From an uncultured bacterium (lineage in GTDB: Bacteria; Omnitrophota; Omnitrophia; Omnitrophales; Abzuiibacteriaceae), in the NCBI GenBank assembly GCA_964387845.1, contig CAYLXA010000010.1, positions 1 through 64,000 of the forward strand: DNA of 64,000 bases. Reading direction: 5' to 3'. A model generated the notes under the pieces. The model was given only the letters and a program-made list of their open reading frames with translations, was not told the DNA's origin and ran no database searches. Positions 1-55,967 of this stretch are shown here, piece after piece. Position 1 is the stretch's first letter. Each line of letters starts with the position of its first letter. Both the position numbers and the translations under genes were made by a program.

Positions 1-76
1 ACACCGAAAGAAATGTTTCAATCACTCAGTGGTGCGCTTCCTGGTTGAATGTAGCCAGTGCAACTTTAAAGTTAAA

Positions 77-120
77 AGTTAAAAATTAAACGAAAGTAAG
101 CTATTGGTCAGTTTTTAACT
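77..120. terminator. Inverted repeat (9-bp stem AGTTAAAAA/TTTTTAACT, plus a 12-bp perfect palindrome AACTTTAAAGTT at 63..74) followed by a T-rich run. Likely a bidirectional terminator between an off-window plus gene and the minus lipoprotein gene.
   Basis: Stem complementarity read directly. T-rich tail TTAAATTTTGAGTTTTAT follows. Confidence 0.35.
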
Positions 121-134
121 TTAAATTTTGAGTT

Positions 135-1538
135 TTATATGGCGGAAGGGCCGGCAGCGTGAAAAAGTCCGTCGATATCCAGCTTCTTGCGGCGGAAGAG
201 TTCAAGGTCGGTTGAATTGAGGCTGGTAGAAGAAGAGGGCAGAAGAATGTTCACCAGTTCCAGATAATCAAAATCCTGGAATTGATAGCTTCGCATGACG
301 GTCACAAATTCATTTACGACGATATTGAACACATACAGAAAATCTTCATCGTTCATCCAATCTTCAATCAGCGCGGCCGGCACACCCGGTGACGCAGGTT
401 TAGGACGCATGCTGAACTCGAGCGAAAAATAGCTGCGCGCACCTTCTTCTTTTGCTTTTTGATAATTTAACTCGATTTTGTGTGCACTGATCGTATTAAA
501 GACACGTTCATCAATCGACAAAGCCGAATTGATGCGCCGCGTAATCTGCGTCGCTAAAAAATCACCCGTCTGGATGTCATCGACTTCGAATTCGGGTTTC
601 CATTCGCTTAAATTTTCATCGAGATTAAGCTCTTCGGGAAACGGGATTTTCTGCAGGATGCCGCTTGAATCCACAAAATTAAACGGGATGATCCTTGAAA
701 TTGCGTACTGTTCTGGCGTCTTCCCTTCAATGACAAAAATATATTCGACCGTGGAGCCGGAGGGATATAAAAATTCTCGCGGATTGGCTCCGGGTTTTAC
801 ATCATAAGTTTCTTTCACCTTCACATAAACGAGCGCCTCGCCGTCGGATGAAACCTGAGAGCGGAGGTCGAGAAAATCGAAATGAATGTTCGTTTTATTG
901 TCTGCTTCTAGGAGTGTCCGGTGGAAAAAGGGAGACAACGATTCGTTATCGATCTTGCGTGAGAAATTCTCAGGCAGGATTTGCTCAATCGGGTCTGTAC
1001 CGATTGCGTTAAATAAACGCTTCACCGGCCGTGACCAGACGACCGTGCGGTTAAGCCGGAGATCGTGTAAGACGCGTTTTCTGTATTCATTCCGCGAAAT
1101 ATCCCAAAGCCGGACGCGCTTGATATCCGAAACATTGCCGACCAGCACCATTTCAAGGCCGGTGTTTTCCGTGTCGGTTGCCTGCAGAACGTAAAAATCG
1201 ATTTTCTTGTCGGTGCTCAAAACGACCCGGGATGTCGTGAATAAAACATCTTCCACCTGCTCCATGGCTTCCGGTGACGGCTCGAGAAGCGATTCGATGT
1301 TCTGGACGTTGGCCAGCAAAGCTTCTTTCAGGTTTGTCGCAAATAATTTTCTCAAGGGCAGGAAAACGCCGATGGTGTTGCCGTTAAACTTCACCTGGAT
1401 GTTTTCGATTCCGTATTCTTTGCGGCAAATCTCGCGCAGTTCATCGACAATCCGGTTTTCAGGGTATGTTTGATGGCAGCCCGCGAGCGCCAATGCCAGC
1501 ACGATAACGATGAGTGATTTTGAAGTCATGTTTTTCAT
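135..1538 (-). CDS. Hypothetical lipoprotein (467 aa)
   Basis: N-terminal signal peptide with lipobox (LALALAGC). No recognisable catalytic motif. Confidence 0.5.
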   Translation of the reverse strand: MKNMTSKSLIVIVLALALAGCHQTYPENRIVDELREICRKEYGIENIQVKFNGNTIGVFLPLRKLFATNLKEALLANVQNIESLLEPSPEAMEQVEDVLFTTSRVVLSTDKKIDFYVLQATDTENTGLEMVLVGNVSDIKRVRLWDISRNEYRKRVLHDLRLNRTVVWSRPVKRLFNAIGTDPIEQILPENFSRKIDNESLSPFFHRTLLEADNKTNIHFDFLDLRSQVSSDGEALVYVKVKETYDVKPGANPREFLYPSGSTVEYIFVIEGKTPEQYAISRIIPFNFVDSSGILQKIPFPEELNLDENLSEWKPEFEVDDIQTGDFLATQITRRINSALSIDERVFNTISAHKIELNYQKAKEEGARSYFSLEFSMRPKPASPGVPAALIEDWMNDEDFLYVFNIVVNEFVTVMRSYQFQDFDYLELVNILLPSSSTSLNSTDLELFRRKKLDIDGLFHAAGPSAI

Positions 1539-3752: not shown

Positions 3753-3866
3753 CTTTTTATGAACCCTTTAAACCACATACCTAAAAGTTTACCACATGTT
3801 CTGTAGTCGTAAGTGGTAAGCTCATACGATTCACTTACCACTTAGCACTTAACACTTACAACTGTT

Positions 3867-6620
3867 TTATGCGAGATACTTCTTCAGAAACTGGCCCGTA
3901 TGGGAGCCGCTTGTTTTCATCAATCCTTCAACCGCGCCGCTGTAAACAATTTCGCCGCCCTTTTCGCCGCCTTCCGGCCCGAGATCGATCACATAATCGG
4001 CACATTTAATAATTTCCATGTTGTGTTCGATGACACAGATTGAATGGCCTTTTTTAAGAATCTTGTCAAAAGCCGACAGCAAAAGTTCGACGTCATGATA
4101 ATGAAGGCCGGTAGTCGGCTCATCAAACAAATAAAGCAGGTTGGAAGTCCCGTTATGGCTCATCTCCGCCGCCAGCTTGAGCCGCTGCGCTTCTCCGCTT
4201 GAAAGCGTGGTTGCGCTCTGCCCCAGCCGTAAATATCCCAAACCCATATCCACCAGGATCGAAAGCTTCTGCACAATGCGCTCTTCGGTAGAAAAAAACC
4301 GGACCGCTTCATCAATCGTGAGCTGCAGCACTTCATGAATATTTTTTCCGTGATAACGGATATCCAAAACATGATTTTGATAGCGCGTTCCTTGGCAAGA
4401 TTCACACGTGACAAAAACATCGGCCAAAAAATGCATTTCAACTTTTAAAAACCCGGCACCTTCACAGCGTTCGCAGCGCCCGCCGGGAACGTTGAATGAA
4501 AAAAGGCCGGCTTGAAGTTTTTTAGCCTTTGCGTCTTTGGTTTTCGCGAATGCGGCGCGGACATCATCAAAAACTTTGAGGTACGTCGCCGGATTGGAGC
4601 GCGGCGTGCGGCCGATCGGCGACTGGTCAATCAAAACCATATCGGAAATTAAATGGAATCCGTCCGTTTGCCTCGTTAAACCGACTTCGGAAATGGGTCG
4701 CCCGCGAAACCGTTCGTAATTGGCGTACAAAATATCATAGAGCAGTGTACTTTTCCCGGAACCCGAAACGCCGGTCAGCACCACCAGCCGGTGAAGCGGA
4801 ATTTTGAGCGAAATGTCCTTCAAATTGTGGTGCCGCGCGCCGCGGATCTCGATCCAGCCGTCGTGCTTGCCGTTTGTTTTGAGGTGTTCGCGCTCGATTT
4901 CGAATTCATGTTTAAAATATTTGGCAGTCAACGATTGGTTTGATTTTTTTAGCTCAGCAAAAGGCCCCGCGTAAATAATTTCACCGCCTTTTTCGCCGCC
5001 AAACGGCCCCAGGTCGATGATTTTGTCCGCCGCTTCGATCATCGAACGGTCGTGTTCGACAATCACGACCGTATTGCCGCGGTCGCGGAGTTCTTTCAGA
5101 AGCCGGATTAGCATATGATTATCGCGCTCATGAAGGCCGATGCTGGGCTCATCCAGCACGTAAAGCGTATCGACGAGTGCGGAACCCAAGGACGTGGCCA
5201 AATTAATCCGCTGAGCCTCGCCGCCCGAAAGTGTGCGTGAAGCGCGGTCGAGCGTCAGGTAACCCAAACCGACTTCGTCCAAAAAGCGGAGCCGGTTATT
5301 AATTTCGAGGAGAATCGGTTCTGCAATTTGGCTTTGCTGCTCATCCAATTTGAGCGTATGAAAGAAAGCCCTGCTTTTTTCAATCGTCATTTTGCTGACT
5401 TGTGAAATATTGAGCTCGGCAATTTTTACCAGCGTTGCTTCGGGCTTGAGACGAGCCCCCCGGCATTCACCGCACGGAAGGTAAGCGCGGTACTTGCTTA
5501 GAAAAACACGGACGTGCATTTTATAAACTTTTTTCTCGAGATATTTGAAGAAATCCTGAACGCTGAAATAATCACTCGTGCCGTCACCGTTTAAAATCCA
5601 ATTTTTTTGTTCTTCCGTGAGGTCGCGGTAGGGTTTATCGAGCGGGATTTTTTTGTGGCGGCAAAAATTCTTTAATTGGTCGAATTCGGATTTTGCACTT
5701 GGTTTTGTCCACGGTTCAATGGCGCCCTGCGCAATTGATTTTGAATCATCGGGAATGACCAAATTCCAGTCAATCGTAATTACGCGCCCAAAGCCCTGGC
5801 AGGCCGGACATGCGCCGAGCGGGTTGTTGAAAGAAAATAAATTCGGCGTCGGGCTTTTGTGCTCAATGTCGCAGGTTCCGCAGGCAAACCGGTTCGAGAA
5901 ACGGAGCGTTTCCTTGCCGGCCAAGATTTCAACCCTGCCCTTCCCATATCGGAAACCTGTTTCAAGAGCTTCAATAACGCGCGAATGATTGTCTGAATGA
6001 ATCTCCATTTCATCCGCCATAACGGACAACGGGGCTGCGACTTGTTCTAAAACATCAATCGCGGCTGTTTTCCCTTTTGACCTCGCTTTTAAAAACCCCT
6101 GCTTTTCATATTCGGCCAAAGCCGATTTCAGGAATTTCGCCGAATTTTCCGAAGTTTTAACGGGAAAAAGAATTTGGACATTTTCTCCAGAATAAGTTTG
6201 CGTAAGAAATTTTGAAATTGATTCGGGCGTATCAACGCTGACTAATTTACCGCACTTCGCGCAAAAAGTCTGGCCAATGCGTGCAAACAAGAGCCGCAAA
6301 TAATCGTTGATTTCGGTTTGGGTGCCGACCGTCGAGCGGGCATTGGTGACAATATTCTTTGCTTCAATTGCAATCGACGGCAAAATGCCTTCGATGAATT
6401 CGATGTCCGGTTTCTCCATGCGCTCTAAAAATTGACGCGCATAGGAAGAAAGCGATTCCACATAACGCCGCTGCCCTTCGGCATACAGAGTATCGAAAGC
6501 GAGAGACGACTTTCCGGAACCGCTCACGCCGGTCACAACAGTCAGTGTCCGGTAGGGAAAATCAATACTCAAATTTTTAAGATTGTGCGTTCTAACACCG
6601 CGTAAGGAGATAGCTTTCAT
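3867..6620 (-). CDS. uvrA: Excinuclease ABC subunit A
   Basis: Tandem ABC ATPase modules (GVSGSGKSSLAFDTLYAEGQRRYVESLSSYARQFL and a second GVSGSGKSTL), zinc-finger cysteine pairs, 917 aa. Confidence 0.95.
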   Translation of the reverse strand: MKAISLRGVRTHNLKNLSIDFPYRTLTVVTGVSGSGKSSLAFDTLYAEGQRRYVESLSSYARQFLERMEKPDIEFIEGILPSIAIEAKNIVTNARSTVGTQTEINDYLRLLFARIGQTFCAKCGKLVSVDTPESISKFLTQTYSGENVQILFPVKTSENSAKFLKSALAEYEKQGFLKARSKGKTAAIDVLEQVAAPLSVMADEMEIHSDNHSRVIEALETGFRYGKGRVEILAGKETLRFSNRFACGTCDIEHKSPTPNLFSFNNPLGACPACQGFGRVITIDWNLVIPDDSKSIAQGAIEPWTKPSAKSEFDQLKNFCRHKKIPLDKPYRDLTEEQKNWILNGDGTSDYFSVQDFFKYLEKKVYKMHVRVFLSKYRAYLPCGECRGARLKPEATLVKIAELNISQVSKMTIEKSRAFFHTLKLDEQQSQIAEPILLEINNRLRFLDEVGLGYLTLDRASRTLSGGEAQRINLATSLGSALVDTLYVLDEPSIGLHERDNHMLIRLLKELRDRGNTVVIVEHDRSMIEAADKIIDLGPFGGEKGGEIIYAGPFAELKKSNQSLTAKYFKHEFEIEREHLKTNGKHDGWIEIRGARHHNLKDISLKIPLHRLVVLTGVSGSGKSTLLYDILYANYERFRGRPISEVGLTRQTDGFHLISDMVLIDQSPIGRTPRSNPATYLKVFDDVRAAFAKTKDAKAKKLQAGLFSFNVPGGRCERCEGAGFLKVEMHFLADVFVTCESCQGTRYQNHVLDIRYHGKNIHEVLQLTIDEAVRFFSTEERIVQKLSILVDMGLGYLRLGQSATTLSSGEAQRLKLAAEMSHNGTSNLLYLFDEPTTGLHYHDVELLLSAFDKILKKGHSICVIEHNMEIIKCADYVIDLGPEGGEKGGEIVYSGAVEGLMKTSGSHTGQFLKKYLA

Positions 6621-30531: not shown

Positions 30532-31677
30532 TTAGGGGTTTTGGGGGTATTTCCTGAATGCTTTGATCAGTTTTTCTGCCGAATGCTTCCAGGTGAAACT
30601 CTCAGCCCTTGCCTTTGCTTTTTGAATCAGCGAAGCTTTCTCCTGCTGATTAATAGAAAGCACATGCCTGATTTTGGCCGCCAAATCTGAAGCATTCCCG
30701 GCCTCAAAGTAAGCGGCTGTATCACCGCACACTTCCGGAATAGACGCGCACTTCGTCGTGATCACGGGAACTTGCGCCATCATGGCCTCTGCGAGCGGCA
30801 GCCCAAATCCTTCATAAAGCGACGGTAAAACAAAAAGCTCGGCGCCTTGGAAAAGCGGAACAAGCTGGGGCTTGTAAAAATGCTGCAAGCGGACCACGCG
30901 GCCTTTTGTGATTTGCGCTGTTATTTTTTCAAGCTCGCTTTCTCCGCGCCTGGGCTGTCCGACAATCACAAGCCTGTGCGGAATTTCGTTGGCAATTTGT
31001 GCAAATGCTTTTGCAAGCACGTGAACATTTTTATGCGGATAAGTATTTGCGACGCAAAGAATGTAAGGGATTTTGGTATCCGGCAAAATGTCTTTTAGAA
31101 TCCTGTTTCGCTCATCCACCGAATAGGGCTTCGCAAAATCCCGGCTGACACCGCAAAAAGTCACGTGGATTTTCTCAGGCGGCACTTGATAATGTTTTAC
31201 GATTTCGTTTTTCGAAAATTCAGAAAGGGTCAACACCAAATTCGAACGACGACTGGCGCCTTTCACCAAAAAATCCGTCGCAAATCGTGAAATGAAATTT
31301 AGATCTTCAGGATGCGTTTTGTATTGAACATCCAAAATCGAAACTGCCTGCGGTTTTCGGCAATAAAAAGGCGCCGTATAGCCCGGCGACCAAAGAAAAT
31401 CAATGTCGGTATTCCCCGCAATTTTCGGAAGTTCATTTTGTTCCGCGATAATACGAGCGTATCGGTTGCGCGCCTTCAAGTTAAGCTTTGTATATTGAAT
31501 ACGTTCGGAACTCGGAAAAAGGGATTTTAAAAACTCATCGTTTTCGAGATTGGTAAAAAGATGAAGCCCAATTTCCGGAAAATCCCGGACAATCGCGCCG
31601 AGCATTTCAGAGAGAATGGTTTCCGAGCCGCCGACTTCCCTGGGGATTAGAAAAAGGGTGTTAACACCGATTCTCAT
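30532..31677 (-). CDS. Glycosyltransferase family 4 (GT-B)
   Basis: [20 protein letters not shown] motif, 381 aa. 4-nt overlap with leuD. Confidence 0.8.
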
Positions 31678-32318
31678 TGGGCCGGATAAAGTTGTGGATT
31701 ATGTTTTGCTTCGAATGCGCTGATGTCGGCTTCGGATTTTAATGTTTTTCCGATATCGTCCAAACCGTGAATCAAATGTTCTTTCACGGACTTGTCGATA
31801 TCGAAATGAAATGAAATTTCCTCGTCTGTGTGAAGTGTCACGCGCTGTTCATCCAAATTGATGGTGGCCTGAAGTCCCGGAAAGCGTTCGGTCATTTGGA
31901 AAATCTCTTCTACTTCGGCTTCTGATAATTCAATCGTAAGAAGCGCATTCTTGCCGCAATTATTCCGGAAAATGTCCGCAAAACCGGGGATCACGGCGCT
32001 TCCTTGTTGAACACGCGGCGCAATCACAGCGCGAAAACCGTATTGCGCAATCGCCCATACGGCATGCTCGCGGCTGGATCCGCAGCCGAAATTATTGCGC
32101 GCGACTAAAATCTCCGCGCCTTTGAATCGCGGCTGATTGAGCACAAATTCGGGGTTCGGTTTTCCGTCCGGCAAATAGCGCCAATCAAAAAACAAACTCT
32201 CGCCGAATCCGGTCCGCTTGATGGATTTTAAAAATTGTTTCGGAATGATCGCATCCGTATCGATGTTGGCGCGGTCAAGCGTCGCGATTAATCCTTTAAA
32301 TGTTTTGAATGCTTCCAT
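31674..32318 (-). CDS. leuD: 3-isopropylmalate dehydratase small subunit. The ATG start is at Met3 of the ORF-track TTG-initiated call.
   Basis: LeuD/aconitase swivel domain, about 214 aa. Confidence 0.88.
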
Positions 32319-32441
32319 TGTCAAATTTCAATATCAAATATCAAAATTCAAAATAATTTCAAATTTCTAAAATTCAAATAATTTTTATTGGAAAATTTGA
32401 ATTTAGAATTTGTTTTGAGTTTTGAAATTTGAGATTTGAAT
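32319..32441. repeat. 123-bp AT-rich imperfect palindrome filling the leuC-leuD intercistronic gap. Left arm CAAAT/CAAAAT-type repeats, right arm ATTTG/TTTTG-type repeats.
   Basis: Seen directly. ...ATTTCAAATTTCTAAAATTCAAATAATTTTTATTGGAAAATTTGAATTTAGAATTTG... The arms are approximate reverse complements. Confidence 0.5.
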
Positions 32442-33839
32442 TTACCTCCAAGTTCTAATATCCACAAAATGTCCTTCAACCGCTGCGGCGGCGGCCATTT
32501 CGGGGCTCACCAAATGGGTCCTGCCGCCTTTTCCTTGCCGGCCTTCGAAATTCCGGTTCGAAGTCGACGCTGCGCGCTCTCCGGGCTTTAATTGATCCGG
32601 ATTCATCGCGAGACACATGCTGCAGCCCGATTGGCGCCATTCGCATCCCGCGGCTTTAAAAATTTCATGAAGTCTCTCGGATTCCGCCTGCTTCAACACC
32701 TGTTGAGATCCCGGAACCACCAAAACGCGCACGCCTTTGGCGACTTTGCGGCCCTTTAAATATCGGGCGGCGTTTCTCAGGTCTTCAATGCGCGCATTTG
32801 TGCAGCTTCCTATAAAGACCGTGTCCACCTTAATATCGGTAATCGGCGTTCCCGGTTTCAAACCCATATATTGAAGCGCAAATTCGACATCTTTTTTGTT
32901 AATTCCAGGCACTTTATCCGGCTCCGGCACGCGACCCGAGACATCTGTCACCATTCCGGGGCTTGTGCCCCAGGTGACTTGCGGCGCAATCTGAGAAACA
33001 TCAATTACGAGCTCGCGGTCAAACTTAGCGCCCGAATCCGTCGGGAGTGTTTTCCAAAATTTGACTGACTTATCGAATTCCGCGCCTTTCGGCGCAAACG
33101 GCCTGTTGCCTGCGGCAATATATTGAAACGTTGTGTCATCCGGCGCAATCATACCGGCGCGTGCGCCGCCTTCGATGGACATATTGCAGATCGTCATACG
33201 CGCTTCCATGGATAACGAACGGATCGCAGCGCCCATATATTCCAAAACATAGCCCGTTCCACCGGCGGTTCCAATTTGGCCGATGAGTTTTAAAATCATA
33301 TCTTTAGAAGTCACGTTCGGCTTCAAACTGCCTTTAAACTCTACTTTGAAAGTTTTGGGCTTTTTTTGCGGCAAACATTGCGTTGCGAGTACGTGCTCCA
33401 CTTCCGACGTTCCGATGCCGAGCGCGAAAGTACCAAACGCGCCGTGCGTTGAGGTATGTGAATCGCCGCAAACAATCGTGAGGCCGGGCAGCGTGATCCC
33501 GAGCTCCGGGCCGATGATGTGCACAATTCCCTGCTCGTCGCTATTTAAATCGTAGAGTTTAATGCCAAACTCTTTGCAATTTTGCGTGAGGGCTTCGATT
33601 TGCGCCTTCGAGACGGCGTCTTTTATATTGAAGCGGTCCTCGGTGGGCACATTGTGGTCCATCGTCGCAAACGTCAGCTTTGGCTGGCGGACTTTGCGGT
33701 TTGACAGGCGGAGACCTTCAAATGCCTGAGGGCTTGTGACCTCATGGATCAGATGGCGGTCGATATAAAGGATGCTGGTACCGTCCGGCAAGGTTTTTAC
33801 CAGATGATGGTCCCATATCTTTTCGAATAAGGTTTTCAT
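32442..33839 (-). CDS. leuC: 3-isopropylmalate dehydratase large subunit
   Basis: Aconitase-family Fe-S cysteine ligands (CGDSHT ... GSCTN ... CSMC), 465 aa. Confidence 0.9.
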
Positions 33840-33891: not shown

Positions 33892-36800
33892 TTAGGCCGC
33901 TGTTAATTGGGCCCAAGCTGCGCGAAGTTCAGAACGTAAAGATTCGGCGATTTGGTCGACGCCAAAGCGTGTGGTCAATTGATCGGGTGATTCCAGGCGA
34001 GATTCAAACTGAACATTTCGGAGTTCAGAGCGCAATTGATCCGCAAAATGCTCGTCTTTACCTTCCACACCATAAAGCACGAATTTAATATTATTTCCGG
34101 TGATTCCTTTGAGAACGGTTGTCGCATTTGTTCGTGTCACAATGTTCACAGAGTGGTTTGCATTATCATCTCTGAAGAAATGATTTTTCAAGAACGATGC
34201 CTGCATTTGTGTGCCGCCGAAGATAACAACAGGCCCTGATTTTCTCATGACCGTTGCTCCGGCATACGCAATCGGCAGATTTTCCAACATGCCCGGTGCG
34301 ACACCATAAACAATGATTGTTTGATTATCATCGGTTTCAATTGCTTCGCTTTGTCCAGCTGTTAAAGAAACTGCTTCTTGAATTGAAGAATGAGGCAAAG
34401 TCGCATACGCTTCTTCAAATTGATTCGCCGAATTTGCCGCCCGGCCCTTAATTTCCGGCGCAATAACACTTTCCCAAGTTAAAGATTCAAATGAAACGTC
34501 AGATATATTATTTTCCTGATTTATAACGCGTAACTCGGACGAAGGCGGGATTACCAGCTTCGCCAAAGCAGCGCTTTTCGGGTCAGAAAAGCGCAATTTC
34601 GATCGACTTGAACGCCTCCTTTTTTCGCGACTAACACCTGTCTCTGTCTTTAAACGGCGCTGATGGCCACCTCTCGGAAAAACTTTTTTATTATAGGTGG
34701 GCGGCTCTTTTGTCCTAGAAAGTTTTCTATCTGGCCTTGGCTTGCCGCGATGGCTAAGCGCTCCGTAGTTTTGCCAATCATCAAGAACTCCGACTTTCGA
34801 ACCGCGGCGTCCTTGCACAAATTTGTAAATATTGCCCTTGCCATCAATATAAACAAATCTCAAGTCCCATCCATTTATAACTCTATAAACACGATCTGGA
34901 AGGCCATCTCCATCCAATTCAATCAATCTCCATTTGTGCCGGCTGTTTTCCTGAACATATACTTCAATTCTGCCAAATATTTGATGATTAAAATGATGGT
35001 AACCAATCGCTTTAAGCGGCTCCCATTGTCCATATTCATCAGGCTGATTATTCTTGACCCAAACTTCATCTGCAAAGAATTTTTCCCGCAAATTGACAAG
35101 CCTCAGATTTCCTGTGAAACCTGATTCAATAGTGCGATTGGTTTGATAGGCAGCCTGGGCAATCCATGCCATAATTACCTTTGCAATTTTTTGTTTGGAC
35201 CATTTATGATAGTAGTTAGCTGAGAAATTATCGAATGGCTTGAATTGACTTGTGATCAGTTTGTTTGAATCGAGATAAAAGCCTACAGAACCTGTACTTT
35301 CATATCCGTAACCCTCATCAAAACCGACTAGAATTTGATAATTTTGTCTACCTGCGCGAACAATCTGCAACAATACCGGATCTCGCGGAGAATAAGGATT
35401 ATTTAGTTTAACGGTATATGTTTTCCATTTTGGATTATCAAAATTTGGAATAAAATCTGCGTTCGACTTCGCGCGCAATTCGGACTTTGCGTCATCGGGA
35501 CGCGAATGATTGGCCATAGGTGCTTTTTCTACAATTTTATTATCACTATTTTCTATATTGACAGGGCCCCGTTTATTTGATATAAGAAAGTCCTCTTCGC
35601 GCACAAACTGAAAAGGAGAATTAAGAATGGTAGAACGTGAATTCACCGCAAGAGAAGTCGGTGCGCTTGTTGAATCTTTCCGGAATGACATTTCCGCCAT
35701 TGCAGAAGGCGTTAGCGGGTTGGCTGTCCGAATGGATCGGGTAGAAGCCAGACTCGCAGTGGTAGAGGTTAAATTAACGTCTGTTGAAGACGCTGTTCGC
35801 GTGGCGGTTCCCAACCACGAATCCCGCATCACCAAACTAGAATCCAAAGTTTTCGGCCGCTGATTATCTTTGCGCAGCTCGGACTTCAGAGAGGCGATTC
35901 CAAAAAACAATGCCTGGCCCTGTTCATTTTTAATTGTTTTCATCACTTGCAGACCACCATCAATAAACTTTTGAAAAATGGTTTCTGGCATTCGATGGTC
36001 TGCCCTGATTCGGCCCGTTGGACTATCCCAAGCTCCCTCAAGCTGATTATAAAAAGTTGTGGCAAAAATTCCTTTTGGTTTAAGAATACGCCTAATGCTT
36101 CGCGCGGCCCGGCTGGCCCGCTCAGTAGACCAGATTTCGATTCCAGGCTTCAATTGAAGAATGGGCATCCCCTCTTCCCTGACATAATCCCACACTGCTT
36201 CATCATCTAAATTACGGTAATGTTGCTTTGTTTCAGCGTGATTGGTAATCAATGCCCAATATAAAACCGAAGAAGCAATGATTAAATCAAATTGCTGGTC
36301 AGCAAATTGACTTAAATCCAAAATATCTGCCTGAACCGCACTCGCCCCGAACCGTTCTTTCGCAAATTGAACCGCATTCTCGTCGATATCAGCCACAATA
36401 ACATCAGCCCCTTTTTGCCGAAGCCATTCAAGGATACTTCCGTCTCTGGCAGTTCCAATTTCAAGCACCCGCTTGCCTTTCCAATAATCCTTTTTCAAAC
36501 TGTCGATTTCTCTCAATCCATGCAAAATGAGTGGTGCTGTACCGCTAGAAATCATTACATCTTCTTCGCCGCGCAGCTCGGCTCTGGCTTTCCGATTAAT
36601 ATCTGACCCGGGCACTTCATTGTGAGCCGGAGCGGACTTCGCGGCGCCTTGGTTCTCTTGCAAATCAATCGATGACATGAAAATATCCCGCCGCGATGTG
36701 ACATAGCCGGCAACATGCATGGTAGACCCTTCGACCGAAAGAGCGAGCGGCAAGTAGTCTTTGGGAAAGTGAAGCAGGCCATTTTCAAATTGCGTTTGAT

Positions 36801-39800
36801 CAATTTGATTTGAGCGGCGGTCAAGTGCAACAATCGCTGAGCCCACTTCAGGATCTTCCCTATTTAACCGATGTGGTGCAACATGCAGGTATGCGGTATT
36901 TCCAAAAATAGAGTTCGGCCAATCTTGCGTAAAAAGTTGATAGGGTTTTTGATTGATCGTCACTTCTCCTAATAAATTGCCCGCTTGATAAACAAGCTCT
37001 CCTGTCTTGATATCCACAACACCTATACCGCTCAAAGGCGCATGCGAATCAAGAATTAAATGATCCTGATTCGAGCGTAAATATCTCACATATTGAAATA
37101 ATTTCGCATTACGTTCATAAACACCTTCTTTTAGTTTGTCAGTACGCAAATGACCGCTGACAGGATCCAAGGCATAAACTTTAGAGGAGCCCAATCCTGT
37201 GAAAAATAAAACGCCTTGAGTGAAGGTGATAAGCGGCGTTGAAACTATTTCATCGGGAAATACTTGCTTCAAATCGAGAACGCCTTTTTCAAATTTGGCA
37301 TGATCTGGCTTTCCGTCACTCATCCGAAACGCGTGAATATAAGCCTGGCCTTTCCGGGCTCTGTCATCAACCGGATGGACATCTGTCTTTCGATAATAAG
37401 CAGCATACAAAGTTTGTCCATCTTCGCTCACGGCCAACGAGTTAATCCGTGCTTCCGGGTCAATCTTTTTAACCTCGTCCGACAAATTTAAACGTCCGTT
37501 CGACCACTTTTCAGACATTAATGCTTTGCGATCTAAATCAACTGCTAAAATGTCACCCGTGAACGAAGTCAAAATGTAAGCCGCATTTCCTCTGGCCACC
37601 ATTTCACGAGGCATGTCCTGAGACGAGATATGAAAGAATCTCTCATTATTTTGCCGCAACTCGGAGCGGGTTTCGGGCTTCGCTTCCATTAGTTTTTTAA
37701 TTTGAGCGCGTGCTTCTGCAATCATTTGATCCGTAATTTCACCCTGCTCTTTGCCGAGCGCCCCCAAGATTTTCGAATCTAAATTGCTTTTTTGGCTGAG
37801 TTCTAAACTGTCATAACCGATGTCTTTTTTCAATTGAACGATCTTTTTATAATTAGAAAAGGTGCGAAGAAAATTAACAACCGGATCCAGCGAGACATGC
37901 TGCCCATCGTCAGTTGCATAAGATCCCAGCAAATCCAGAGTGGTTGTTGCAATCATCAATTCAATTGCCTGGTTAAATTGATCTTCGCCGCGGATGCCTG
38001 CCTGCTCAAATTCCTGCCTTAATTTCTCCAATTGTTGAGCACGATGAATCGAAAACGCAAAAATGTGATGTTTAATGATTAATTTCAAAAGCGCATTGCT
38101 TGAAACGTCCATTTCACCGAAGTGAATATGATTGTCACTTAACACGCGAAATGATTCGAGTTCATGGCCCGGAAATGAATGGTCTCCATTCTCTTTGAAC
38201 TGCATTTTGGTTTTCTTGCCGATATCATGAAGCACGATAAATGCTTCCAATATCGCGCGGTCTTTTGCATTCCAATCCTTAATCAGATTGATCGCATCTT
38301 TGGGCGCTGTAGTGTTTCGGTCAATTTGATTGAGTGCCGAGAGAATGGCTTGTAAATGGTCCTGAAGTTTAGCATTCTGGCCGCCTTCCCTATGAAACAG
38401 GCTGTGATAATGAGGCGTTTCCAAAAAATCCGCATATTGATCCGGAATGCCAGATAACTGTTTCACCAATTCATCCAATGCTGAAGCCGGCCCATACTGG
38501 CGCAGCTCGGAGCGCTGTTCTTTTATCCATTGCACCAAACGCCGATAGTCAGTAACGCGAAGCGACATGCGGGAATTTCCGGGATTCGGCGCTATGATAA
38601 ACTGGTCGGCGGTTCCTCGAACCTTTTGGTACACAAAGACGAGAAACATACCGTAAAACCCCTGTGATTCCGGAAGGCCCCGGGCAACCCAATCCGCTTC
38701 AAGAATTGACCTGAGGACATTTGCCTTGATGGTCAACTCGTCCGGTTCCTTGTTTGCATCTAATTGTGCGATGACGGATTGAAAATATTGCAGAACTACC
38801 GCGTTTCTCCGTTGACTTTGAAGATCATTCCCCAATCCTTCAAAAAGTTTTTGCGTAAAGCGCTGCGCATTACCCATTTGATTTAAATCACGGACCAATG
38901 CCCGATATTCGCGCCGGTAAGCAAGCCATTCGTCTTCCAAATGCATATCAACGGAGCGCACAACCTTCTTAAATGCTTCCGGACTTGTTATCAATGGCTC
39001 CATGTCTGATTTGCCATGCAATTGCTTAACAAAATCAATCAGATATTTCATGCCCTCATCTGCTTCTCTGGCCAATGCGGCATTGATCAAGTGCGTACCT
39101 TCATGGATCATGACATATTTAATAATCAGAGGTGGAAAATGAAGCGCGAAGTCACGATTGATAGTCACATGAGTCACGCTTCCGTCTAATGAAGTTTTTA
39201 TACGTGCATACGAATGCCTCTGCAAAGAGCTTAATAAAGTGTCATCGAGAACGGGATTTTTTTTAAATGCCTCGATAAATTTTAATGCTGTTTTTTGATC
39301 GTCTAGGTTTGAAATTTCGGAAGCAATTTTTTCAAGGCGGTCCACAACCGCTTGAATTTCAGGGAGAAATTCGGGAGTTCTGATCCACCGCAAGATAGGC
39401 CATGCAGCAAATAAAGCGGTTGTTCCTGCACCGATTATTATTTGCCTGCGGCTTGGCAGCCAAAATTTCTTAGCAGGCTCTTCGCTTTTTACTCCCTGAC
39501 GCCGCTCCTTATTTTTTCGTCCGTTCTCACTTGCGCGCAGCTCGGCGCGGGAATTTCCGCTTGGAAGCTTGATGTTAAATTCTGCGGCTGCGTGGGCCAG
39601 CGCACGGTCGCGGTGCTCTCCATACATCAAAGCTTCCCGATGATTGTTTAGGCCTTTTTTCTTCCGAATTCGCTTTGCTTTATGCACAGAAGCCCTGGTT
39701 GAGTACTTCAAAGAAAGCGGCGCTGCCGGAAGCTGAATGCCGAACCGTTTCGCAGCATTGTAAAGCGCCCTGTCCCGATGCTTGCCTCGGGTTAACTCGC

Positions 39801-52436: not shown

Positions 52437-52488
52437 TTTTTGTGACTCGTGGTTCGCGAATCGTGAATCGATGCACGAATCACTAAGT

Positions 52489-53580
52489 TTATCGAATTAG
52501 GTATTCGGCGATTTGAACGGCATTGAGCGCGGCGCCTTTGCGGAGCTGATCACCCGCCACAAACATCGCGAGGCCGTTTGGATTGGACATGTCCTCGCGA
52601 ATCCGGCCGACCAAAACATCATCGCCGCCTGAAGCGTCAAAAGGCATCGGGAAGAGATTTTTTTCACGGTCGTCAACCAGCTTCACGCCTTTTGCTCTTT
52701 TTAGAATTTCACGCGCTTCATCCGGCGACATTTTCTTGGAGAATTCGAGAACGATGGATTCCGCATGCGCACGAAAAACCGGTACACGGATACAAGTCGG
52801 GCAAATTTGAATATCCGGAGCGTTCAAAATCTTCCGGGATTCTTCAACCACTTTATTTTCTTCTTCGTTGTAGCCGTTCGCAGCAACCTGTGTGTTGTGC
52901 GAAAAAAGATTAAACGCGATTTGATGCATGAATGCTTCACGCTTGAGCGCCTTTCCCTGCCGGACTTCTTTTGCGGCTGATTCGATATTTTCTAAAATAT
53001 CCGAATTTTTCTGAGACTTTACGCGCTGCAAGAACTCCTCGGTCTGCGTAAAAAGTTCGCGCATCGCATTTCCGCCCGCGCCGCTCGTGGATTGATAAGT
53101 CGACACCAAAATGCGCTTCACGGGATTTGCTTTGTGAAGCGGCGCTACGGCCATCAACATAATGATCGCTGAGCAATTGGGATTTGCGATGATTTGGCTT
53201 TTATATTTCTCAATATCGGAGCCGTTAATTTCGGGAACCACGAGCGGGATCTTGGGATCCATGCGGAAAGCACTCGTATTGTCCACAATCATACAGCCGG
53301 CTTTAATCGCATGAGGCGAAAATTGTTTGCTGACAGTTTTTCCGGGACTTGAAAGGATGATATCAATGCCTTCGTAACCTTTTGAATCCATCGGCAGTTC
53401 TTCGGCGGCGACTTTTTTGCCGTTAAAGTCGAGAGACACGCCTTTCGATTTGGAAGAACCGAAAATCCGCAAGTTATCGACCGGAAATTTGCGCTCTTCA
53501 AGAATGTGGCGAAGTTCCGAACCCACCGCGCCACGCGCACCGACAATGGCGACATTGTATTTTGATTTTTTCTTTAACAT
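52489..53580 (-). CDS. asd: Aspartate-semialdehyde dehydrogenase. The start is at MLKKKSKYNVAIVGARGAVG and the ORF-track 10-aa extension is dropped.
   Basis: N-terminal Rossmann GARGAVG, active-site Cys in NCSAI, 363 aa. Confidence 0.88.
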   Translation of the reverse strand: MLKKKSKYNVAIVGARGAVGSELRHILEERKFPVDNLRIFGSSKSKGVSLDFNGKKVAAEELPMDSKGYEGIDIILSSPGKTVSKQFSPHAIKAGCMIVDNTSAFRMDPKIPLVVPEINGSDIEKYKSQIIANPNCSAIIMLMAVAPLHKANPVKRILVSTYQSTSGAGGNAMRELFTQTEEFLQRVKSQKNSDILENIESAAKEVRQGKALKREAFMHQIAFNLFSHNTQVAANGYNEEENKVVEESRKILNAPDIQICPTCIRVPVFRAHAESIVLEFSKKMSPDEAREILKRAKGVKLVDDREKNLFPMPFDASGGDDVLVGRIREDMSNPNGLAMFVAGDQLRKGAALNAVQIAEYLIR

Positions 53581-53667
53581 GATTTTAGAGCTCCAAGCTA
53601 CAAGCTGCATGCTACAAGCTGTACAATCTTCAAAAACTTGAAGCCTGAAGCTTGTAGCCTGTGGCGA

Positions 53668-54741
53668 TTATTTTGTTATTCGTTCACAAACCAATTTTCC
53701 CATTTCCTGACAACCAACCAGTTTCATTCCTTCACTAAAAATATCTGCGGTGCGGTAACCGTCGTCTAAAACTTTCTTCACAGCCGCTTCAACGTGAAGT
53801 GCCAAATCATTCAAGTCAAATGAATATCGGAGCATCATCGCGCACGACAAAATCGTCGCGAGCGGATTGGCTTTGTCTTTACCGGCAATATCCGGCGCAG
53901 AGCCATGAACCGGCTCATAAAGCGCGTGATGATCACCGATGCTGGCTGACGCGAGCATGCCGATTGAGCCGGTGAGCATGGATGCTTCGTCGCTCAAAAT
54001 ATCGCCGAAGAGATTCGTGGTCACGATCACGTCGAATTGTTTGGGATCGCGGACAAGCTGCATCGCGCAATTGTCCACATACATGTGTGACAACTGGACA
54101 TCCGGAAACCGTTTTCCGAGCTGCATGACGACTTTGCGCCAAAGTGCGCTTGATTCTAAAACGTTTGCTTTGTCGACGGAACAAACTTTGCGTTTGCGTT
54201 TGCGCGCAAGCTGAAATGCTCTTTGCGCAATCCGTTCAATCTCCGAAGTGGAATATACTTCGGTATTGAATCCTTTTTCCGAACCGTCTGAATTTTTCTC
54301 GATTCCTTTCGGCTTTCCAAAATAAATGCCGCCTGTGAGTTCGCGCACAACCATGATATCGGTTCCGCGCACCACATCCGGCTTCAAAGTAGAAGCAGAA
54401 ATCAGGCTGTCGTAAATCATCGCCGGGCGGAGATTGGCGTAAAGCCCGAGTCCGCTGCGGATACCGAGAAGGCCCGCTTCGGGCTTTTTATCGTGTTCCA
54501 AATTTTCCCATTTAGGGCCGCCGACCGCACCGAGCAAAACGGCGTCTAAATCTTTCGCCACTTTTAAAGTTTCATCCGGCAAAGGAATTCCAAACTGATC
54601 GATCGCAACACCGCCGATCAAAGCTTCCTTGAATTCGAAGTTCAGGTGAAACGTTGAAGCCACATGCTTCAAAATTTTCACGCCAACTTGTACGACTTCT
54701 GGCCCGATTCCATCGCCCGGGAGAGCAAGCACTTTATACAT
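53668..54741 (-). CDS. leuB: 3-isopropylmalate dehydrogenase
   Basis: Isocitrate/isopropylmalate dehydrogenase signature [25 protein letters not shown]. Confidence 0.9.
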
Positions 54742-54772
54742 AGGGGTAAGGATTAAGGGGTAAGGGATAAGC
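54742..54772. repeat. Terminal inverted repeat (right) of the four-helix-bundle insertion: AGGGGTAAGGATTAAGG..., abutting the leuB start codon
   Basis: A 16-17-nt core is the exact reverse complement of 55173..55189. Confidence 0.5.
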
Positions 54773-55121
54773 TTTTGCGAAGTCCGGAAAGCATTCTTCC
54801 GATTTCGTTACAGTAGTTAATAAGCATTTCATAATGTTCATGATCAACATAATTTAAATCCCTGCTTAAAAGTAATAAATATTTGGTTTCTTCAAGTGAA
54901 GAATTCGACAAATTCAGAAAATGCAAATAATCTTTTGTACTTTTTCGTTTTTGTCCTTCTACAATGTTTGTGGCAATCGAAACTGTGCTTCTTCGTATTT
55001 GAGAAATAATTCCAAATTTTTCATCATTTGGAAAACGTTTCGTTAACTTATAAATTTCTAAAATTAAAGTGTGAGATTTTTGCCAAACTTTTAAATCTTG
55101 AAATGTTTCTATCCTATACAT
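54753..55121 (-). CDS. Four-helix-bundle protein (TIGR02436-like family, the type often found in 23S rRNA intervening sequences)
   Basis: Characteristic ...DLKVWQKSH...L...[26 protein letters not shown] pattern. The last residues are encoded by the flanking repeat. Confidence 0.75.
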
Positions 55122-55169
55122 ACACCCTCCATGAATTTTATTTGTTATTCGTGGAGGGAAATTGTTTTA

Positions 55170-55967
55170 CTACTTAATCCTTACCCCTGAATCCTTAATC
55201 CTTAATCCTTCTTGTGGGCTCGAGGCAACCGCGTAATCCTTAATAGGAATGCGGCCCGCCCAATAAGCCTTGCGGCCCGCAGAAACAGCTTCCTTCATGG
55301 CTTCTGCCATCAAAACCGGATTATCCGCGCAAGCGATTGCGGTATTCATCAAAACGCCGTCGGCGCCGAGCTCCATACAAACAGCCGCATCCGATGCGGT
55401 ACCAACACCGGCATCCACGATGACCGGAACCGACACAGCTTCTTTAATAAATTGAATGTTCAGGCGATTTTGGATTCCGCGGCCCGAACCAATCGGTGCC
55501 GCAAGAGGCATGACACACGCAGCGCCGGCTTCTTCCAATTTTTTCGCCACAACCAAATCATCCGTTGTGTAAGGCATCACCGTAAAACCCTCCTGAACTA
55601 AAATTTTTGTCGCTTCCAGAAGTGAAACCACGTCCGGCAAAAGTGTTTTTTTATCGCCAATCACTTCGAGTTTAACCAAATCACCAAACCCTGCAGCGCG
55701 CGCAAGCCGTGCGATCCTCAGAGCATCTTCTGTGTTATAAGCACCCGCCGTGTTCGGCAGGATTAAATATTTGCCCCGATCAATATAGTCTAAAAACGAT
55801 TTTTCGGCTTTGTTGCCAAGCGGAACGCGACCGATCGCGACCGTCACCATATCGCAGCCGGATGCTTCAAGCGATTGCGTCATATCATCAAACGTGCGGT
55901 ACTTGCCGCTGCCCGTGATGAGCCGTGATTTCAAAGTATATTTTCCGATTTTCAATTCATCGTTCAT
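55170..55967 (-). CDS. thiG: Thiazole synthase
   Basis: ThiG TIM-barrel. The Schiff-base lysine region and C-terminus are altered by the inserted repeat. Confidence 0.85.
55173..55210. repeat. Terminal inverted repeat (left) of the four-helix-bundle insertion (CTTAATCCTTACCCCTGAATCCTTAATCCTTAATCC). Provides the last ~12 codons of thiG.
   Basis: Reverse complement CAGGGGTAAGGATTAAG matches 54742..54758. The thiG C-terminus ...[13 protein letters not shown] is read from this repeat. Confidence 0.5.

Follow-up and report, generated by a model that had tools for sequence, protein, structure and literature searches.

How did a gene of a family known from the intervening sequences (IVSs) of 23S rRNA come to stand between thiG and leuB, two protein-coding genes of a bacterial operon, and what kind of element does it belong to? 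The question is raised by a stretch of 64,000 nucleotides (the window) from an uncultured member of the Omnitrophota (assembly GCA_964387845.1, contig CAYLXA010000010.1, positions 1 to 64,000), in which a gene for a 122-residue S23p (23S_rRNA_IVP) protein is bracketed by inverted repeats. An earlier note on this DNA, made from its letters alone, had read the gene and its repeats as a small mobile or selfish module that had given thiG a new 3' end. It is well established that this Omnitrophota lineage acquired the gene and its repeats, together called the cassette here, at the thiG-leuB junction, where they took the place of its final 20 nt. The element is probably an IVS-type cassette, that is, a promoterless S23p gene with two inverted arrays of degenerate heptamers, residing not in an rRNA gene but among the protein-coding genes of an operon.

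Acquisition of the cassette and the new end of ThiG

Three sister contigs (L008, L006 and L004), whose ThiG proteins are 98, 96 and 95% identical to that of the window, lack the element, as the earlier note had thought possible. In each of them the thiG stop codon TAA is followed by 4 nt and the leuB ATG, with no four-helix-bundle gene between the two. When filled and empty alleles are aligned, about 462 nt stand in place of 20 nt, TCTTTCCTTAAAGAAATAAY, of the ancestral thiG-leuB junction. A second filled allele, L009, comes from another sample and has the same cassette with identical junctions.

The end of ThiG was rewritten in the process. The three closest relatives, with 258-259 residues, end in ...SSPQEGLSLKK, and the window ThiG has 265 residues. 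Since 16 of 16 related ThiG proteins, mostly of 258-260 residues, end in ...SSPQEGL-x-x-K(K), the tail found in the window is derived, and the suspicion that it was not ancestral is borne out. Comparison of the DNA shows that the insert supplies the third base of a glycine codon, 11 further codons and a stop, and that the native LSLKK (five codons) is gone; the final 12 codons before the TAG are encoded by the 5' arm of the cassette. Only the variable tail of ThiG is affected, because its Pfam domain stops at residue 251. The ThiG of L009 stops at a TAA inside the arm (...GLRIKD*), six codons sooner than that of the window, where the same triplet is TCA and the protein reads on to ...DSGVRIK*. 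Since the L009 protein stops earlier within the same arm, the tail is a by-product of the arm. A GLRIK ending alone is not odd, as another ThiG (P0049) ends in GLRIKS without any insert.

The two arms are inverted repeats built of smaller repeats, both of which the earlier note had recognized. An exact core of 16 nt, AGGGGTAAGGATTAAG, lies at 54742-54757 on the plus strand and at 55173-55188 on the minus strand, and the arms extend to 30 nt with 83% complementarity (54742-54771 and 55173-55202). Tandem Repeats Finder (TRF) gives a period of 7 in both, with 4.3 copies for 54742-54771 and 5.4 for 55173-55210. Their units, AGGGGTA/AGGATTA, belong to the thiG-leuB cassette locus alone. With up to two mismatches the core has four matches in the window, all at the cassette locus (0.02 expected from shuffles); the exact core is absent elsewhere in the 64,000 nt, and the recurrence that had been envisaged for it was not found.

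All genes of the glgA-thiG-cassette-leuB-asd region lie on the minus strand (Table 1). The last base of the 3' arm directly precedes the leuB ATG (54739-54741). This arm overlaps the final seven codons and the stop of the cassette gene, whose TAA (54753-54755) is 11 nt upstream of the leuB start. One repeat thus touches leuB and the other gives the last 12 codons of ThiG, as had been described, with the correction that "left" and "right" hold in the orientation of the genes and are reversed on the plus strand. A Shine-Dalgarno sequence for leuB is not evident in either the filled or the empty allele.

The presence or absence of the cassette disagrees with the phylogeny of its flanks. Judged by 570 flank columns that the alleles share, the allele nearest to that of the window is the empty L008, with 92.5% identity and nine shared-derived sites, as against 84.0% and one such site for the filled L009. 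Deletion cannot regenerate the native 20 nt, and so the distribution calls for one or more horizontal events or for a separate insertion at this very site. Such a horizontal event could have been an allele exchange, of the filled or the empty form, by homologous recombination across the highly conserved flanks. Between the two filled alleles the cassette open reading frame (ORF) is 87% identical, the 5' arm with the leader 94% and the 3' arm 100%. In a collection of 5.8 billion proteins, only two are more than 70% identical to the cassette protein, one identical to it and the other that of L009, and both are encoded at thiG-leuB.

Other cassettes and repeats were seen near thiG. On a 2.1-kb contig (JGI 3300071325) from a more distant member of the Omnitrophota, a ThiG of 74% identity (P0029) is followed after 2 nt by a gene for a 141-residue PF05635 protein. 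The ThiG tail there is repeat-like (KVKSEELRVKS / GLKVKSEELRVKS); in this second lineage, too, a cassette stands at the 3' end of thiG. We rejected the idea of a general hot spot at thiG-leuB, as P0029 is the one further lineage and the long-tailed ThiG proteins P0053, P0022 and P0049 have no heptamer element. In the Omnitrophica CG11 metagenome-assembled genome (MAG) PCVY01000058.1 (L105; 1410-1500 and 2290-2310), thiG is flanked by a repeat that is not heptameric, with an inverted pair, AACAGGTACCGGTTCTAAAAGTGCC / GGCACTTTTAGAACCGGTACC, upstream and a partial copy downstream.

Table 1. Positions of the cassette, its parts, neighbouring genes and other heptamer repeats in the window
Feature	Position	Strand	Remarks
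glgA	55964-57424	minus	
thiG (thiazole synthase, 265 aa)	55170-55967	minus	PF05690, E 6.5e-106; domain end at residue 251
5' (upstream) arm	55173-55210	minus	AAGGATT AAGGATT AAGGATT CAGGGGT AAGGATT AAG; TRF period 7, 5.4 copies
New thiG stop (TAG)	55170-55172	minus	Directly after the 5' arm
Cassette gene leader, 48 nt	55122-55169	minus	Holds a hairpin, arms 55125-55136 / 55147-55158
Cassette gene (S23p / 23S_rRNA_IVP, four-helix-bundle, 122 aa)	54753-55121	minus	PF05635, TIGR02436
3' (downstream) arm	54742-54775	minus	GCTTATC CCTTACC CCTTAAT CCTTACC CCT; about 4.5 heptamers
Inserted DNA relative to empty alleles	54745-55206	minus	About 462 nt, edges +/-2 nt; alignment with L009, L008, L006 and L004
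leuB (3-isopropylmalate dehydrogenase, 357 aa)	53668-54741	minus	TIGR00169, E 2.4e-157
Solo hairpin, leuB-asd	53581-53667	minus	(GGCTACA/AGCTTCA)n - loop - (AGCTTGT/AGCATGC)n; fold -35.3 kcal/mol, z -4.4
asd	52489-53610	minus	
Inverted heptamer pair	46018-46046 and 52442-52470		(CGATTCA)n / (TGAATCG)n; 29 nt, 90% complementary, 6.4 kb apart
Solo hairpin, leuC-leuD	32325-32441		117 nt, (TCAAATA)n / (AATTTGA)n; fold z -3.9
Solo hairpin downstream of uvrA (3867-6620)	3815-3863		Inverted heptamers
Solo hairpin	60-135		Inverted heptamers

The protein, its family and heptamer hairpins

The cassette protein matches PF05635 over the entire profile (positions 1-106 of 106; E 7.7e-40, 135.8 bits, cut-off 33.8) and TIGR02436 with an E value of 9e-38 (128.8 bits, cut-off 24). 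It has all 24 invariant columns of a 39-sequence family alignment and, as a single domain of 122 residues, is within the size typical of PF05635 proteins (about 115-130 residues). Its nearest solved relatives are 2GSC (X. campestris XCC0516, E 1.2e-16) and 2RLD (E 9.5e-11). The profile matches and 2GSC uphold the assignment of the gene to the 23S rRNA IVS (S23p) type. 2GSC has five chains and the solved relatives are pentamers; by similarity to them, the cassette protein is predicted to be a pentameric four-helix bundle. The gene is intact, and the window and L009 differ at 25 synonymous and 14 non-synonymous codons among the 122, which indicates purifying selection on the protein. That the protein binds its own heptamer arms is a guess. 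PADLOC gave no match, and for this reason we dropped a reading as a defence system.

With 21,712 clusters at 50% identity, the PF05635-type family is very large. To place the cassette in it we surveyed 80 loci with relatives of the cassette protein, taken from species-representative genomes of many phyla, together with plasmid copies from cultured bacteria. For each of 84 genes with both flanks available, the upstream and downstream flanks of 130 nt were searched for an inverted repeat between them, and in 62 of these it exceeded the 99th percentile of shuffled and positional controls. Of the significant arrays, 57 of 72 on the 5' side and 43 of 67 on the 3' side had a period of 7. The next commonest period was 8, and multiples of 3 were almost absent. 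The unit itself varies by locus (GTCGTAA, CAGTCGA, GGTATCA, GGGTTGA, TCAGGAG and others). Neighbouring genes are mostly co-oriented with the cassette gene, upstream at 64 of 76 and downstream at 54 of 77 loci, and with median gaps of just 56 nt upstream and 48 nt downstream, the arms take up the space between the genes. The same layout is found in cultured Nostoc, Trichormus, Aulosira and Riemerella. The heptamer-bracketed cassette between co-oriented host genes is thus shown to be the norm for this family across phyla. Rfam detected no family at gathering score in the window and none in 20 related loci, so the copies tested are not in rRNA genes.

The arms are inherited together with the ORF as one unit. 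The Jaccard index of shared arm 5-mers rises from 0.024 to 0.16 at protein identities of at least 60%, and in a Mantel test of arms against ORF the observed value was reached in 17 of 2000 permutations. All relatives at least 50% identical to the cassette protein have arms of the type xxxTAAG / CTTAxxx.

The two arms also differ in what they do to reading frames. The 5' arm is G-rich (G exceeds C in 74 of 85 flanks), and AG is conserved in its unit in 35 of 57 arrays, as against CT in 4 of 57. Stop triplets number 3.46 in the sense strand of the 5' arm versus 2.25 in its complement (p=0.005), and all three frames are closed in 26 arrays versus 17 for the complement. Where a long co-oriented host ORF reaches the array, it stops inside it at 11 of 12 testable loci, as thiG does. 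As a rationale for the heptamer we suggest that, with a period coprime to 3, one stop codon in the unit is enough to close every frame in the space of three units. The 3' arm is the complement of this and stays open when read in the sense direction, and the cassette ORF regularly ends within it.

Several "fusion" proteins (P0254, P0259, P0280, P0265 and P0370) consist of a four-helix bundle, a low-complexity linker that is the translated 3' arm, and a pilin-like (N_methyl) or PorP/SprF part; P0265 has a translated 5' arm, VKGKGVVNGNGKVKG, at its start. These proteins are probably artefacts, of read-through or annotation, to which the stop-free 3' arm gives rise. For annotation this means that low-complexity C-terminal tails, N-terminal extensions and "fusion" ORFs beside cassettes stem from reading through the arms.

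A Candidatus Omnitrophota MAG (JACRHP010000019.1, L014, 1571-3760) has three cassettes in three consecutive intergenic spaces, alternating with small host genes, and their units differ (GGTCACA, GTCGTAA and CGTATCT). On two cyanobacterial plasmids, Anabaena sp. 90 pANA02 (L097) and Pseudanabaena galeata pPg_01 (L099), a four-helix-bundle gene lies between cas6 and cas4 of a CRISPR-Cas operon. In pANA02 the annotated cas4 start takes in a translated (TGTCACC)n arm.

The window also has heptamer hairpins that enclose no ORF. The one between leuB and asd is absent from L008 and L006, where the order is leuB-TAA-C-ATG-asd with a 1-nt gap, and at the same place in L004 there is a different heptamer hairpin, (CGTATCT)n/(AGATACG)n. 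The gap between leuC (32442-33839) and leuD (31674-32324), which encode isopropylmalate isomerase subunits, is wholly taken up by such a hairpin. Of those at 3815-3863 and 60-135, one is GTCGTAAGTGGTAAG / CACTTACCACTTAGCACTTAACACTTAC, of the TAAG/CTTA type like the cassette arms, and the other (AAAGTTA)n / (TAACTTT)n. Each solo hairpin in the window has its own unit, different from that of the cassette arms. In the widely spaced inverted pair, one arm lies between asd and truA and the other in the 5' part of a 4114-aa ORF (33892-46236). The sister contigs lack, at this position, the seven genes that the pair encloses (truA, an ABC transporter, MR_MLE, DUF819 and others); synteny with these contigs stops directly after asd, and no homology was detected between the giant ORFs. 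On these grounds we gave up reading the 6.4-kb block as a cassette that had been inserted relative to the sisters.

Period 7 alone is over-represented, both in the window and in related loci. The window has four arrays of period 7, where none is expected, and none of periods 4-6 or 8-12. In 302 kb of related loci away from cassette genes, there are 17 arrays of period 7 versus 0-2 for each other period, and in 50 kb of E. coli there is none of period 7.

A proposed mechanism at the RNA level and its alternatives

A plausible mechanism for an IVS-type cassette in an operon, drawn by analogy with the rRNA elements, acts on the transcript. A scan of the minus strand found no promoter or terminator consensus inside the cassette, and because no such site is present, read-through from the glgA-thiG-leuB-asd operon is the simplest assumption for its transcription. 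In the transcript the arms would pair to form a stem of about 30 bp enclosing the ORF, as in 23S rRNA IVSs. The RNA of 54725-55225 (minus strand) folds with a minimum free energy (MFE) of -112.2 kcal/mol (z -3.6), and both the MFE and the centroid structure are closed by a stem of the two arms, which do not fold by themselves when isolated. The stem would be expected, by analogy with the 23S rRNA IVS, to be processed by RNase III.

The stop-rich 5' arm would end any incoming upstream frame, here that of ThiG, and the cassette ORF would run into the stop-free 3' arm and end just before the leuB ATG. In this way leuB may stay translationally coupled through the cassette, as it formerly would have been to thiG; such a relay is plausible because the cassette stop lies 11 nt before the ATG, as compared with 4 nt for the thiG stop in the empty allele, and leuB has no evident Shine-Dalgarno sequence. 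With its stem, its frame-closing 5' arm and the coupling kept, the insert would be nearly harmless and therefore could persist as a selfish passenger.

The leader of the cassette gene contains a further hairpin (55125-55158), in which RNA folds pair CCCUCCA with the Shine-Dalgarno sequence UGGAGGG of the gene. The hairpin is kept in L009, and there is an analogous one in L017. In the latter, a Planctomycetales MAG (~2425-2497) with a 55%-identical cassette gene, UUUCCUCC lies about 40 nt upstream and pairs with the Shine-Dalgarno sequence GGAGGAG.

Several observations weigh against this picture. The sequestering hairpin is confined to the window, L009 and L017, so we do not regard it as a feature of the family. 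Arm mismatches on the sense strand show no excess of the G.U-compatible kind (63, versus 66 A.C), so selection specifically on a sense-RNA stem is not supported; duplex energies show a weak preference for the sense strand (55 of 85, p=0.007). In Pseudanabaena pPg_01 the arrays are direct and not inverted, (AAAGCTA)x14 upstream and (AAAGCCA)x10 downstream. The aligned filled and empty alleles show no target-site duplication at the junctions. No second copy sharing these arms was found, nor any relative of more than 70% identity away from thiG-leuB, so that recent transposition is not demonstrated. The synonymous divergence between the window and L009 is similar for the cassette (25 of 122 codons) and leuB (17 of 70), which would fit long residence with allele exchange as well as it fits transfer. 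The description of the element as a mobile or selfish module is supported indirectly. Its presence and absence are incongruent with the phylogeny and the unit recurs at unrelated operon junctions in many phyla, but no target-site duplication and no close copy elsewhere were found.

Alternatively, the cassette could be a mobile element acting at the DNA level, in which the arrays serve as recognition or hairpin sites on which a recombinase or transposase acts in trans, or the four-helix-bundle protein itself, in the manner of REP/RAYT, IS200/IS605 or attC hairpins. The ORF-less heptamer hairpins would then be non-autonomous derivatives. Such an element would account for the strand symmetry of the arm mismatches, which lack a G.U bias, for the presence/absence polymorphism of both the cassette and the leuB-asd solo hairpin, for the travelling of arms with the ORF, and for the abundance of solo period-7 arrays in cassette-bearing genomes (the 17 in 302 kb, and several in the window). 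We nevertheless think it unlikely. No recombinase or transposase is encoded within 6 kb on either side, the junctions lack a target-site duplication, and no multi-copy family with identical arms was found. A single enzyme recognizing all arms by sequence is improbable, because every copy has its own heptamer unit, even the three adjacent cassettes of L014. The strong co-orientation with host genes is also not expected of an element that acts purely on DNA.

It is quite improbable that the cassette is instead a domesticated module of benefit to the host, with the hairpin as operon punctuation (for mRNA processing, stabilization or translational coupling) and the protein as an RNA-binding partner that tunes thiG and leuB. 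Purifying selection on the protein and the very large size of its family would fit this, as would the position of hairpins exactly between the housekeeping cistrons leuC-leuD, leuB-asd and thiG-leuB; the hairpins of the cyanobacterial repeats named STRR (short tandemly repeated repetitive) may stabilize transcripts or couple translation (PMC2670836). The closest relatives, however, lack such a module, with just 4 nt between thiG and leuB and 1 nt between leuB and asd, and the patchy distribution is incongruent with phylogeny. The end of a host gene was damaged and not respected, and sites in rRNA helices (PMC4990558) or between cas6 and cas4 look opportunistic.

We rejected a remnant of a diversity-generating retroelement, with the gene as its Avd accessory protein, as very improbable. 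The protein is homologous to bAvd (PF22296, E 3.2e-12; NF033474, E 3.9e-16), but its 59.3 bits against NF033474 are below the cut-off of 80 and the IVS-protein family is the best match; no reverse-transcriptase Pfam family occurs among the genes within 6 kb on either side, and a repeat scan of 54600-55400 gave no template/variable repeat pair. We give next to no credence to the absence of any insertion, by loss of an ancestral gene in the sisters or by a chimeric assembly: the similar synonymous divergence of cassette and flanks between the filled strains would agree with it, but the empty alleles share 20 nt (including the LSLKK of ThiG) that simple deletion cannot regenerate, more distant ThiG proteins keep the native ending, and at least two samples yielded the filled allele in independent assemblies.

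Relation to known systems

Among known elements, the IVS-type cassette has short inverted ends and presence/absence polymorphism in common with miniature inverted-repeat transposable elements (MITEs) and other transposons with terminal inverted repeats (TIRs). We abandoned that reading, as there is no target-site duplication, transposase or family of copies and the ends are heptamer arrays. The "intact TIRs" of the earlier note are accordingly present as inverted repeats, but have not been demonstrated to be of the transposase type. The repetitive extragenic palindromic (REP) sequences and their associated RAYT transposases (REPIN) likewise combine a small gene and inverted repeats with many ORF-less intergenic hairpins of related architecture. 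However, the cassette protein is a four-helix bundle unrelated to the Y1 (HUH) transposases, and the dispersed hairpins have units of their own and share only the period-7 architecture with the arms; we dropped this reading too. Avd belongs to the same superfamily as the cassette protein (PMC10053308), and the two are of one homologous four-helix-bundle fold family, with the cassette protein below the cut-off of the Avd model.

The STRR sequences of cyanobacteria are 7-bp repeats that form intergenic hairpins of unknown function (PMC2670836). Like the cassette arms, they are tandem heptanucleotide arrays in intergenic regions of operons and are capable of forming hairpins. They were described without an associated gene and in heterocystous cyanobacteria, whereas here the arrays bracket a gene, the host is a member of the Omnitrophota and the unit is specific to the locus. 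On plasmids of the Nostocales, such arrays do flank four-helix-bundle genes, one case being the (TCAGGAG)n / (CTCCTGA)n arrays of N. punctiforme pNPUN01.

A sequence rule emerges from the survey: PF05635 genes lie between inverted period-7 arrays, in the orientation of the operon and with the stop-rich side outward. This applies to Omnitrophota, Cyanobacteriota, Bacteroidota, Planctomycetota, Acidobacteriota and Proteobacteria. The rule links two unexplained things, the rRNA IVS elements, known since 1990, and the cyanobacterial STRR heptamers, first described about 1990, and there are cultured, tractable carriers in Nostoc punctiforme, Trichormus variabilis and Riemerella. We found no account in the literature of non-rRNA S23p genes with inverted heptamer arrays or of a link to STRR sequences; subscription journals were mostly outside this search, and an earlier description is possible.

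We advance only tentatively, and regard as rather doubtful, the broader proposal that PF05635 genes with inverted heptamer arrays form one very widespread, unrecognized class of element, of which the rRNA IVSs were the first members to be noticed, with STRR sequences and solo hairpins as ORF-less relatives or products, and a pentameric protein that binds or propagates the arms. Such a class may have colonized the stop-start junctions of operons and the helix tips of structural RNAs, since the stem and the frame-closing repeats would make insertion there nearly harmless. The partnership of protein and arms would loosely resemble that of RAYT with REP or of Avd with its RNA.

The closest counterpart of the cassette is the 23S rRNA IVS with an S23p ORF, found in Coxiella burnetii, Leptospira, Xanthomonas and Brucella, which encodes a protein of the same family. 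In Coxiella the IVS is closed by a terminal stem of 28 bp that RNase III cuts, its loop holds an S23p ORF, and its tandem GACAGAT heptamers number two to four, depending on the strain; the origin of 23S rRNA IVSs is suspected to be mobile and is unresolved (PMC4990558). The IVS and the cassette are alike in an ORF enclosed by terminal inverted repeats with a stem of about 28-30 bp, in tandem heptamers beside the ORF, in a total length of about 430-470 nt and in encoding no recombinase. They differ in location: the IVS sits in helix 9, 25 or 45 of the 23S rRNA gene, whereas the cassette lies between two protein-coding genes of an mRNA operon. Of the properties that define an IVS, the cassette has the complementary termini that close a stem, and its place at thiG-leuB, without an Rfam match, is outside an rRNA gene. 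Unlike the IVS, it rewrites the C terminus of a host protein and adjoins the next start codon. As the filled and empty alleles demonstrate, a cassette of the IVS type is able to enter an operon of protein-coding genes and to give a host protein a new end.

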